DNA of 64,000 bases from Dictyostelium discoideum (Eukaryota): NCBI GenBank assembly GCA_000004695.1, contig CM000150.2:4448001-4512000 (forward strand). The letters are read 5' to 3'. Below the pieces are notes generated by a model. The model searched no databases and was not told the DNA's origin. It saw only the letters and a program-made list of their open reading frames with translations. The translations under genes and the position numbers were made by a program. The number at the start of each line of letters is the position of its first letter. Within the stretch, counting starts at the first letter, position 1. Positions 26,835-31,049 of this stretch are shown in pieces.

Positions 26835-29800
26835 TTAAAGTGGTAAATTAACATTTATAATATTTGCCCAAAAATTAGCACATTTCATATGATAGAAATG
26901 GTTGTTATGTTGAGTTATATTGTCAATGAAATTATCTAAAATGGTACCACAAATGTAACAAGATTTTTGATTAACAGAGATTGGAGTTGTATTACATGAT
27001 TTCATACCATCATAATATGAAAGTTGAATCTCTTGGAAATATGGTATTATAGAATTCCAAATATTATTTAATTTTTTAAATGTTAATGCTGTATTGTTAT
27101 TATTATCATTTCTTATTGAACTTTGAATTGTATGATTAACTTGATATGCTATTGAATAGATTTCAGATAATGATGATAAAAATTCTTTATACTTTTGTGA
27201 TTCCTTCACTCTTTTTCCTAATGGTATATCATTTACAATTTGATTCTTTATAGTTATTAATACATCTAAAGATTGCTCTAATTCATCTAAACAATGTTGT
27301 AATGTAATTGAAGTGATTTCAACTTGATATTGAGTCATTAAAATTGGTTGTACTGTTGATTTATTCTTACTACCACTATTATTTGAATCAATGTCAAATA
27401 ATAAATTTGATGTTGAAAATTGATTATTATCATTATTACTATTTGGATCTGTATTACTTAATATCATTTTAATTTGTTCTTTCTTTTCATTTAATAATAA
27501 ATTTCTATTTTTATTAAAAAAATATAAAAATAAAATCATCTTGTTAATAAAGTTTTTTATTTTTTTTTTTTTTTTTTTTCAAAAAAAAATTATAATTACT
27601 TACTGAGTGAAATTTTTAGATTTATTTTGTAATTCAATTGCTAATAATAAATCTTTTTTTGCTAGTGTTACTAATGATTGATATTGGAATTGATTAAAGA
27701 ATGAATCAATCTTTTCTTTTGATATATTTTTAGATTGTAATAATTTAATCATATGATTAATATGATAATGATATTTTAAAAAGTCTTTACCTGTCCATTT
27801 CATAATCATTTGATTCAATTTCTCATCATTTAAATCTGTACCTTCTTTCATATATTTTTGACATTCCAATGCTTCAATTAATCTTTCATCTTCAATTAAT
27901 GATTTATAAATATCATCTAATAATCCTTGTCCTGCATTATTTGTATTTATATTGTTATTATTATTATTATTAATATTTTTAATTTTAGTTGAATTACTAC
28001 TAATTGGTGTTAAAGTTGGGAAATCATTAAATGTTGAAGTAAAAGATGATGATGATGGTGGTGGTTGTGAAGGGAAATCTGTAAAATCACCAAAACTATC
28101 ATTATCATCTTTAGTTGCAATTGGTTTGATAGTTGTTGTTGTTGTATCTTTTGTTGCTGATGATGATGATGTTGGAAGTAAAATTTCATCAAATGAAAAA
28201 TCTGTTAGTGAACTTATTGGTTGTTGTTGTTGTTGTTTTGAAGCTAAAGTATTTAGTGAACTATTTTTAAAGGTTGATGATAATGATGATTTAGGATTTG
28301 CTGTTGAAGTTATTGCAGGTGCAATAATTGGTGGTAATTTTGATCTACTACCAGTTGGTGATGGTAGTATTATATTGTTACTATTATTATTATTAGTACT
28401 ATTATTACTACCATTACTATTCTTTCTAATTGGTAATGGTGAATTATTAGAAGATGGTGGTGAAATAAAAGTGGTTGAATTATTTAATGATGGAGGTTGA
28501 GTTGATGGTGTAATTGATCCGATAGAAGGTACTAATTCAATAGTATTAACTTGATTAATTGGTGGTGAAAATGTATCACTTTCAAACAATTCTATATTAT
28601 TACGACTACCTCCACTTACTACATTCGAAATACTACTACTATTATTGTTGTTGTTGTTATTATTAATTCCTCCAAAAACTTGTTTTGTTGCATCGTTAAA
28701 TTGCGTACTTAAATTCAATTCATTCTTTACAGAACCTGCATTTGGAGCTATAATATTACTATTGTTATTATTATTATTATTATTATTATTATTATTATTA
28801 TTATTATTATTATTATTATTATTATTATTATTATTATTATTATTATTATTATTATTATTATTATTATTGTCGGTTAATGTTGATGGGAATGGTGATGATG
28901 TATTAAAATCGCCAAAATCATCATCTGTTTTTGTTGTTGTTGTTGTTGTTGTTGTTGTTGTTGTTGTTGGGAAAGATGATGGTGAAGTATTAAAATCGCC
29001 AAAATCATCATCATTCTTTTGAGTTGTTGTTGCTGCTGTTGTTGGGAAAGATGATGTATTAAAATCATCATCATTCTTTTGAGTTGTTGCTGTTGCTGTT
29101 GTTGGGAAAGATGATGATGATGTATTAAAATCACCAAAATCATCGTCATCTGTTTTTGCTGTTGCTGTCGCTGTTGCTGTTGTTGTTGTTGTTGTGGTTG
29201 CTGGTAATTTATCAGAAGAACCAATTGGTAAATCAGTAGTGGTTGTTGATGTGGGTTTAATTATTTGTGGTGGTGGTGTTGATTCCATTGTTGGGGCAGA
29301 GAAGAAATCAACTTCTTTATTTACAGTGTCGAAAATGTTGCTATAGTTTCCACTTGACCAATCATATTTAGATTTAGTGTTTATTGGTGCAGTAGTTGAT
29401 GGTGGTGATTGAGTTTGTAAAACTTCAGGTTTAACAATACCTGCTAATCTTTTCGATTCTCTCATCATTTTTTCTAAATCAATTGGTGTGTCATCTTGTT
29501 GTGGTGCTGGTGTTGGTGCTGGTGTTGGTGTTGGTATTGGTGCTGGTGTTGGTGTTGGTGTTGGTGTTGTTTCATTAGTAATTGATGGTTGTTGTTGTTG
29601 ATGAATATTACTTTTATCAATTGAACCACCAGATAGTGATGCTGGTTGTTGGTTAGAAATTGAAGATTTACCAACACTTCCGGATGATGTTGTTGATTCA
29701 CTACTAAATGGTAATCCAAAATTAAAGTTATGCTGTGATTGTGGTTGTTGCTGTGGTTGCTGTAGTTGTGGTTGCTGCATTTGTTGAGATGCAGATGTAA

Positions 29801-31049
29801 AATCCTGTGAACCTGATTCAAAATCACCAAAATCATCATCATTACTATTACTAGTTGTATTAAACTGTGGTTGAGAAAATTGCATATTATTTTGAACCGC
29901 TGCTGCTGGGTAATTGAATCCCTGTTGCTGTGGTTGTTGAAGGTATTGCATATTATTTTGACCCACTGGGTAATTAAAACCTTGTTGTGGATGTTGTTGT
30001 GGATGTTGTTGTGGATGTTGTTGTGGATGTTGTTGTGGATGTTGTTGTGGATATTGTTGTTGAGGGTGTTGTGGATGTTGGTGTGGAAAGGGTTGGTTTT
30101 GTTGTCTTTGTTGATTTTGTTGTTGAAGCATTCCATCGAATGAATTAGGTTGTGGTTGTGGTTGTTGATTTTGTGGTAATGATGATGATGATTGGGGTGA
30201 GGAAGTATTTGGTGATATCACGTGATCATAATTATTTTTTTCAACACTCAAACTTGATTTCTCTTTTTCAACAGATAATGGTTTTATATCCTCTTCTATC
30301 ATATCCTTTAAGATATCATAATTTCTTTTACCACCTGGTAAAACAACTGGTGGATTATTACTAGTTGTTGGTTGTAATACTCCCTATTATATATTGATAT
30401 AGATAAATGAAATCGACACATTAGTCACCACTAACATTAAATAATATAAAAAAAAAAAAAAAGATAAAAAAAAAAAAAAAAAATTATATATAATTACATT
30501 TGAAAATTGGGGTTGTTGTGGTGATTGTTGTTGTTTTAATGCCAATTCTGGGAAATATTGTAATAATGGATTCTCTTTTTCCTTTGAAGCTTGTGGGGAT
30601 GGTTGTTGTTGTTGTTGATTTGGTGAAATGAATGAGCCAAATCCACCCATCATCATATTATTATTATTATTACCCATCATTTGTTGTGGATTGAAATTAC
30701 CACCCATTTGTTGGTTATACATCATTTGGTTATAAAAATTTGGATTTTGTTGTTGCATTTGTTGGTTATACATCATTTGGTTATAAAAATTTTGTCCACC
30801 CCCTCCCATCATCATATTATTATTATTATTATTATTACTATTATTACTACCCATTTGATTATAAAAATTTTGTCCACCCCCTCCCATCATATTATTATTA
30901 TTGTTATTATATCCATTTTGTTGTTGTTGTTGTTGTTGTTGTTGTTGTTGTTGTTGTTGTTGTTGTTGTTGTTGTTGTTGTTGTTGTTGTTGTTGTTGTT
31001 GTTGCATATACATATGGTATTGTTGTTGATTATTAAATTGGTTTTGCAT
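26835..31049 (-). CDS. Three-exon gene on the minus strand: exon A 31049..30498 (ATG at 31049, phase 0), intron about 30497..30384, exon B 30383..27604 (phase 2 end), intron 27603..27505, exon C 27504..26835 (stop included). About 1330 aa Q/N/M-rich protein with multiple DFGDF-type motifs and a C-terminal globular region.
   Basis: ORF 30387..31049 ends in intron junk after ...QFSN followed by a gtaatt donor. The acceptor ...tatataatag precedes ggagtattacaacc, which lies in the open upstream extension of ORF 27600..30302 (GVLQPTTSNNPPVVLPGGKRNYDILKDMIEEDIKPLSV...). That ORF ends ...ACTCA then gtaagt. The acceptor aataaaaatag then 'a' joins in the frame of ORF 26835..27539 at NLLLNEKKEQIKMILSNTDP.... 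Exon A carries a prion-like repeat, GGGGQNFYNQMM iterated. Exon B carries (QQHP)n and at least six D-rich F-G-D-F motifs (DDDFGDFNTS...). A CA-rich box (rc of gttctggtgcgtgtgtttatt, 31210-31230) lies about 170 bp upstream of the ATG. Confidence 0.6.

Follow-up and report, generated by a model that had tools for sequence, protein, structure and literature searches.

A putative gamma-synergin family member with an array of acidic Phe-x-Asp-Phe motifs in Dictyostelium discoideum

What does a long, low-complexity protein do that repeats an acidic Phe-Gly-Asp-Phe motif ahead of a structured C-terminus? The question is raised by a gene in a 64,000-nucleotide stretch of the Dictyostelium discoideum genome (contig CM000150.2, positions 4,448,001 to 4,512,000), hereafter called the window. 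The gene occupies positions 26835..31049 of the window on the minus strand, as do all features of it described below. It is set in very AT-rich DNA (77% AT across the window) and is composed of three exons and two canonical GT..AG introns. With an ATG at 31049 and a stop codon at 26837-26835, it encodes a product of 1333 amino acids. An earlier reading of the locus (the original prediction) proposed that the product is an accessory protein binding the gamma ear or appendage of clathrin adaptors. We consider it probable that the gene is a dictyostelid member of the gamma-synergin (SYNRG) family, whose array of DDFxDF motifs would bind the AP-1 gamma ear with a SYNRG_C module tethered to it.

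The first line of evidence comes from the C-terminus. A phmmer search with the last 332 residues, run on 1.84 billion representative proteins, had exactly four matches at E<=1e-3, P0001-P0004 (E 4e-6 to 5e-4). All four end in C-x2-C...[YWF]H-x2-CAN[FL][WL], and all four carry the precomputed Pfam assignment PF25999, SYNRG_C (synergin gamma C-terminal domain). The same region was recognised by two profiles that were built without the Dictyostelium sequence and were controlled with 5000 shuffles. The profile derived from the PF25999-labelled proteins P0001 and P0005-8 aligned to residues 1168-1332 with 39.6 bits (E 3.5e-10; best shuffle 12.1 bits). The second profile was derived from the C-termini of L093, L096 and L030, three open reading frames (ORFs) that contain an EH domain and thus show the architecture first described for gamma-synergin; it aligned to residues 1179-1332 with 39.2 bits (E 3.9e-10; best shuffle 15.5 bits). 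The structured C-terminal region that had been noticed earlier is therefore confirmed as something other than an unrelated family, and the protein is very probably a SYNRG_C-family homologue.

The SYNRG_C-homologous domain (26841..27335, residues 1168-1332, about 165 residues) comprises helices, then a small beta-hairpin and another helix. C1293-x2-C1296 (26949..26960) would form the first half of a putative four-ligand zinc site and H1316-x2-C1319 (26880..26891) the second; the latter is followed by ANFW, as in the family signature [YWF]HxxCANFW. The CxxC and HxxC positions are invariant in every alignment made, and each of the 27 distinct metagenomic tails that have at least 60 residues of upstream sequence shows a CxxC ahead of the signature. 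Upstream of the domain lies a further helical region (27504..27926, residues 1004-1111, LIEDERLIEALEC...W...AKKDL), which is common to P0002 and P0004 and was not seen in the metazoan-type SYNRG_C protein P0003. When the full protein and its C-terminus were scanned with a Pfam-A library that lacks the PF25999 model, and in which PF25999-labelled P0001 is likewise unmatched, a sub-threshold FecR_C match was all that was obtained. PDB sequence searches with the single sequence and with a profile gave no meaningful match. A word-indexed search for homologues of the C-terminal 332 residues found none, and with alignments it found only P0001 and P0005-8. The product of the exon C ORF had no exact match among the records of the assembly index.

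The second line of evidence is the motif array. Exact matches to [DE]FxD[FW] number five, at residues 368, 599, 644 and 673 (DFGDF after two or three Asp) and at residue 950 (DFTDF). The first is embedded in DDDFGDF (29820..29840, residues 366-372), the second in DDDDFGDF (29127..29150, residues 596-603), and the third and fourth again in DDDFGDF (28992..29012, residues 642-648, and 28905..28925, residues 671-677). The fifth belongs to DNDSFGDFTDF (28074..28106, residues 944-954), in which DFTDF at residue 950 overlaps SFGDF at residue 948; the FGDF tetrapeptide accordingly has five exact copies in the protein. The original prediction had counted at least six copies of an Asp-rich F-G-D-F motif. 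Five are intact, while the sixth, DDDFNTS (29052..29072, residues 622-628), is degenerate, lacks GDF and lies inside a 60-nucleotide tandem repeat at 29001-29133. The string DDDDFGDFNTS, which had been read three times, corresponds to one copy with four Asp and two copies with three.

The number of motifs exceeds what composition would yield. Of 20,000 shuffles that preserved composition, two contained two motifs, the most seen in any; one motif occurred in 255 and none in the rest, so that 0 of 20,000 reached three. The cluster at residues 599-677 includes the 60-nucleotide tandem repeat (96% matches, 29001-29133), and the motif copies within it are thus not independent of each other. Three unrelated contexts are left, namely residue 368, the cluster at 599-677 and residue 948, and this count is still above that of any shuffle.

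The combination of motif array and SYNRG_C domain is found in other organisms as well. Metagenome contigs were scanned by DNA pattern for YHxxCANFW, which gave 110 loci, 76 of them scoring as SYNRG_C. Six of the nine longest metagenomic SYNRG_C ORFs have two to five motifs of the [DE]FxD[FW] class, and two others have one or none. None of 2000 shuffles equalled the motif counts of five of these six ORFs, nor those listed for L107, L037, L056, L096, L087 and L029. L107 has three DFGDF and two DFADF motifs, L037 has DWGDF, DFSDF, DFADF and DFGDF, L056 has EWGDF, two DFGDF and EFDEW, and L096 has DFGDF, DWSDF and EFGDF; in the metazoan-type protein P0003 we found EFDDF, EFTEF and two EFGDF. Conservation of the repeats in relatives, on which the earlier proposal had been made to depend, is hence observed: D/E-F/W-x-D/E-F motifs, often DFGDF or EFGDF, occur in multiple copies in other SYNRG_C proteins. 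Since acidic F-x-D-F array and SYNRG_C domain occur together in other members, the pairing is a property of the family and not a peculiarity of the Dictyostelium gene. A Pfam EH domain stands beside SYNRG_C in L093, L096 and L030; none was detected in the recovered ORFs of L056, L037, L029 and L107, which are possibly incomplete.

According to Page et al. (PMC2169493), gamma-synergin is a direct ligand of the gamma-adaptin ear and reaches membranes in the wake of AP-1. Its five DDFxD/EF repeats are situated in or close to the region that binds gamma-adaptin, and the fragment to which binding was mapped contains three of the five (PMC2169493). By calorimetry, [D/E]FxD[F/W] was defined as a ligand of the gamma appendage, with a dissociation constant of 13 uM for a gamma-synergin peptide (Mills et al., PMC2172650). 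The assignment of [DE]-F-x-D-F to the gamma-ear ligands in the original prediction agrees with both papers (PMC2172650, PMC2169493). The Dictyostelium protein resembles animal gamma-synergin (SYNRG / AP1GBP1) in its SYNRG_C domain with the CxxC...[YWF]HxxCANFW signature and in its multiple DDFxD/EF, that is [DE]FxD[FW], motifs within a long disordered region. It shares a Q/N/M-rich N-terminus with gamma-synergin-type relatives, and its length of 1333 residues is comparable to that of human gamma-synergin, whose DDFxD/EF repeats reach position 1027 (PMC2169493). Unlike animal gamma-synergin, it lacks an EH domain, even though EH-bearing metagenomic relatives exist, it has the extra helical region at residues 1004-1111 shared with P0002 and P0004 only, and it shows extreme expansion of Q, N and T homopolymers.

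Four of the Dictyostelium motifs literally read DDFGDF, and multivalent low-affinity capture by AP-1 gamma ears is therefore the best-supported mechanism. The five acidic DDFxDF-type motifs would be displayed on the long disordered region and would act as ligands of the gamma ear, and of the GAE domain of GGA proteins, with micromolar affinity, as in mammalian gamma-synergin and epsinR. Once AP-1 is present on membranes of the trans-Golgi network (TGN) or endosomes, the multivalent array could bring the protein onto these coated membranes. The helical region and the SYNRG_C domain with its putative CxxC...HxxC zinc site would then be the structured cargo at the working end of the tether. If the mammalian complex of aftiphilin, HEATR5B (p200) and gamma-synergin (PMC10798858) is taken as a guide, the C-terminal module most likely provides a surface that would contact other coat-associated factors. 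Lacking an EH domain, the protein would not be expected to link AP-1 to NPF-motif proteins. The proposal of a gamma-ear/appendage-binding accessory protein is thus supported by SYNRG_C homology and by the motifs of the relatives, and the protein is likely, if a little less surely than its family membership in the form given above, to work as an AP-1 gamma-ear-binding accessory protein.

The acidic Phe-x-x-Phe class is also used by EpsinR/enthoprotin, aftiphilin, Rabaptin-5 and yeast Ent3/Ent5 for binding to the gamma-adaptin ear and the GGA GAE domain (PMC2172650). Unlike EpsinR and aftiphilin, the Dictyostelium protein has neither an ENTH nor a Clathrin_bdg domain detectable in the Pfam scan, its structured domain being SYNRG_C. 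In aftiphilin the Clathrin_bdg / CLBA domain contains the HEATR5-binding helices HR2-HR3. We considered the protein as an aftiphilin and rejected this assignment, as the Pfam scan gave no Clathrin_bdg / CLBA match but only the sub-threshold FecR_C match. A more general likeness exists to the HEATR5 cofactors, yeast Laa2/Lft1 and human aftiphilin/CLBA1, which are likewise linked to AP-1, mostly disordered and equipped with short conserved modules, and which bind HEATR5 via three short helices, HR1-3 (PMC10798858). These cofactors evolve fast, and homologues in other kingdoms are difficult to identify (PMC10798858). No similarity to the three helices was noticed in the Dictyostelium protein, for which no search aimed at them was made.

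Several observations weigh against membership in the gamma-synergin family and a role at AP-1. No EH or EF-hand_4 domain was found at E<=1 in the full-length protein by a Pfam scan whose library does find EH in L093, L096 and L030, so that one of the features that originally defined gamma-synergin is missing. Identity to other SYNRG_C proteins amounts to only 19-27%, and the domain was assigned by profiles built here, not by the gathering threshold of Pfam's own PF25999 hidden Markov model (HMM). AlphaFold gives no confident interface between HEATR5 and gamma-synergin, not even for the human pair (PMC10798858). Finally, three of the five motifs lie within a recently duplicated tandem array, and simple repeats in such genomes arise by the same route.

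This last point leads to the alternative that survives best. The protein could be an ordinary low-complexity protein in which DFGDF is a by-product of repeat expansion without any binding function, the C-terminal domain acting independently of adaptors. Codon repeats have indeed expanded throughout the gene (poly-Q, poly-N, poly-T and (QQHP)n), and the motif-bearing 60-nucleotide unit was duplicated so recently that its copies still match at 96%, one of them having already decayed to DDDFNTS. Repeat expansion would leave unexplained why the motif stands in three unrelated contexts when none of the shuffles contained three, why motifs of this class are also enriched in SYNRG_C proteins that are independent of it and come from other organisms, and why it coincides with the experimentally defined gamma-ear ligand of the founding member of the family. 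We regard this alternative as unlikely.

According to another interpretation, the FGDF motifs bind the NTF2-like domain of a G3BP homologue and, together with the Q/N-rich domain, direct the protein to condensates of the stress-granule type instead of clathrin traffic. The five exact FGDF copies and the Q/N-rich low-complexity exon A would suit such a role, and FGDF has been defined as a G3BP-binding motif in which both Phe residues and the Gly are needed (PMC4450067). The known ligands of this type, alphavirus nsP3 and USP10, have the same exact tetrapeptide in multiple copies, but sequence and domain context differ. With SYNRG_C as its structured domain, the protein is linked to the accessory proteins of AP-1, and the relatives carry FADF, FSDF, FDDF and WGDF, which fit [DE]FxD[FW] and not a strict FGDF. 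The FGDF motifs of alphavirus nsP3 and USP10 are preceded by hydrophobic residues, as opposed to the Asp runs seen here. G3BP binding in place of a function at AP-1 is very improbable in our view; binding to G3BP and binding to the gamma ear are not mutually exclusive.

Family membership in the proposed form further presupposes that motif array and SYNRG_C domain are parts of a single protein. Exon A (30498..31049, residues 1-184, 184 amino acids) encodes a low-complexity N-terminus rich in Q, N and M. It is followed by intron 1 (30384..30497, 114 nucleotides, GTAATT...AATAG, 86% AT) and by exon B (27604..30383), which starts with residue 185, ends with the first two bases of codon 1111 and encodes the disordered S/T/P/Q/N-rich stretch with the ear-binding-type motifs as well as the first helical region. 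Intron 2 (27505..27603, 99 nucleotides, GTAAGT...AATAG, 92% AT) separates it from exon C (26835..27504), which supplies the third base of codon 1111, residues 1112-1333 and the stop codon. Both introns contain in-frame stops when retained, and splicing keeps the reading frame. Across the exon B/C junction, uninterrupted ORFs of homologues are colinear with the spliced product: residues 384-740 of P0002 align to residues 958-1325 of the Dictyostelium protein, and residues 191-434 of P0004 align to residues 1061-1325. The junction between exons A and B is predicted from canonical splice sites, continuity of the frame and the lack of intergenic space. A Q/N-rich start is seen in EH-containing relatives too, in line with the joining of exons A and B. 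The three-exon gene that had been reconstructed earlier is thus recovered, with GT..AG introns of 114 and 99 nucleotides, a preserved frame and colinear homologues over the B/C junction.

Were the three ORFs separate transcripts, exon A or exon C would be independent, and motif array and SYNRG_C domain would not be combined in one protein. The gene model has been deduced from sequence alone and homologues do not cover the A/B junction, which leaves some room for this arrangement. However, both introns preserve the frame, are typical in length and consist of 86-92% AT, and the 114 and 99 nucleotides between the ORFs are too few for a terminator and a promoter. In addition, single-ORF homologues span the B/C junction, other ORFs of the family join motifs and SYNRG_C, and a Q/N-rich segment also opens the EH-containing relatives. 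In view of the colinear homologues across the B/C junction we rejected separate genes, which we hold to be very doubtful. Still less credible is a RING-type zinc finger, and with it an E3 ubiquitin ligase, in the C-terminal Cys/His cluster: the cluster noted in the original prediction is present as CxxC...HxxC, but only four ligand positions are conserved family-wide and it is thus not a full RING, whose cross-brace (C3HC4 or C3H2C3) has eight, RING and PHD Pfam models score at E 0.1-0.4, far under their cut-offs, and the domain ends 14 residues past the last Cys, so that the RING reading was rejected on ligand count and Pfam scores.

The N-terminus of the putative synergin is strongly biased in composition. 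Q and N together make up 54% of exon A and 65% of the first 110 residues. Exon A contains a poly-Q tract (30918-31004, residues 16-44) and two copies of the repeat MMGGGGQNFYNQM; NFYNQM(M) occurs four times. A (QQHP)n tract follows in exon B (29982..30080, residues 286-318; a 12-nucleotide tandem repeat of 8.8 copies). Poly-N is found at residues 690-725, and the gene also has a poly-T expansion. All of the repeats quoted in the original prediction, including (QQHP)n, are hence present in the translated product. A prion-like domain had also been taken there as a hint of a scaffold. The composition is Q/N-rich as stated, but Q/N-rich prion-like domains are very common in Dictyostelium proteomes, and the N-terminus is ordinary for such a genome. 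As a milder Q/N-rich N-terminus is found in the EH-containing homologues L093 and L096, it is by itself no sign of a role as scaffold or in condensates.

Other short sequences of the protein and its relatives were noted. LLFDID (27387..27404, residues 1145-1150) lies in a low-confidence linker and loosely resembles a clathrin box, L-phi-x-phi-[DE], without matching the strict consensus; it is a single occurrence without statistical support and its relation to clathrin is speculative. The same holds statistically for FSFDEILL (28173-28199, residues 913-921), a single acidic dileucine of the DxxLL type. D-[KR]-Y-x-x-[LF] recurs in one or two copies (DKYSVFR, DRYSNLR, DKYSSLY) in the SYNRG_C proteins examined for it, L093, L037, L029, L087, L056, L107, P0001 and P0003, and the last copy, where seen, closely precedes the first SYNRG_C helix. 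The nearest that the Dictyostelium protein comes to it is DIYKSL at residue 1008 (about 27901-27918), at the start of the extra helical region. Three metagenomic tails (L046, L081 and L089) read AFNSETDNFKL[AL]YGGHQYHASCANFWINCVEPKPPGLILPDLL and are nearly identical to what we take to be the mammalian SYNRG C-terminus (...YGGHQYHASCANFWINCVEPKPPGL...), a resemblance used only as a lead; they probably represent vertebrate DNA of a host or a contaminant.

Residues 484-537 (window 29400-29600) form a non-repetitive island, IDLEKMMRESKRLAGIVKPEVLQ...KYDWSSGNYSNIFD. By eye this island resembles LDSLMM...RDWSTLAQNLENAF at the N-termini of L029, L087 and L056 and KKVDWSAVDPSDIF in P0002. The pairwise E-value of the resemblance is 0.06. 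With an HMM of this block, the Dictyostelium protein was outside the top targets, all of which were shuffled controls, and no reportable domain was obtained. A conserved N-terminal block at this position (IDLEKMM...KYDWSSGNYSNIF) was therefore rejected as unsupported.

Several other ORFs lie around the locus. An ORF at 31608-32480 on the minus strand matches Adenine_glyco of the bacterial Tag type (E 3e-62), and about 2.5 kb from it a MutY-like gene with HhH-GPD and NUDIX_4 domains lies at 35000-36724 on the plus strand; both encode base-excision-repair glycosylases. A Peptidase_C39_2-like ORF (36790-37548, minus strand, E 6e-19) adjoins an ORF with FNIP repeats (37669-38508, plus strand); such repeats, the AT-rich DNA and the many poly-Q and poly-N tracts are in keeping with a dictyostelid genome. 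The Peptidase_C39_2 family is known mainly from bacteria, and the ORF is a possible candidate for horizontal transfer. On the other side, a large ORF of 1477 amino acids (19278-24517, plus strand) carries calponin homology (CH) domains towards its C-terminus and is preceded by a 249-residue ORF with a weak HAP1_N match. A small ORF at 26318-26602 on the plus strand may be the terminal exon of a neighbouring gene.

According to the literature, clear homologues of gamma-synergin exist in animals only (PMC10798858), and our literature search found no paper linking synergin to Amoebozoa. The Dictyostelium member most likely extends the family outside animals, as judged from homology and motif content. 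If this is true, the presence of both gamma-synergin hallmarks in a dictyostelid would place the origin of the family at least in the common ancestor of Amoebozoa and animals, and the conserved core would be the motif array together with SYNRG_C, not the EH domain. Whether gamma-synergin is an animal invention appears to us evenly poised: DDFxDF array and SYNRG_C core with its four-ligand zinc site may already have been present in the Amoebozoa-animal ancestor, with the EH domain dispensable or acquired later. The gain is incremental: Pfam has the family and applies its label to non-canonical metagenomic members, and the protein may have been flagged before by automated annotation. In Dictyostelium, AP-1 is implicated in the formation of the contractile vacuole (PMC3485558). 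Motif-dependent binding to the AP-1 gamma ear is a prediction that can be tested in this organism. If the assignment holds, the haploid and tractable Dictyostelium would offer a system for finding the function of SYNRG_C, which might, for instance, be to attach to a complex like that of HEATR5 and aftiphilin, or to cargo at the TGN or contractile vacuole.

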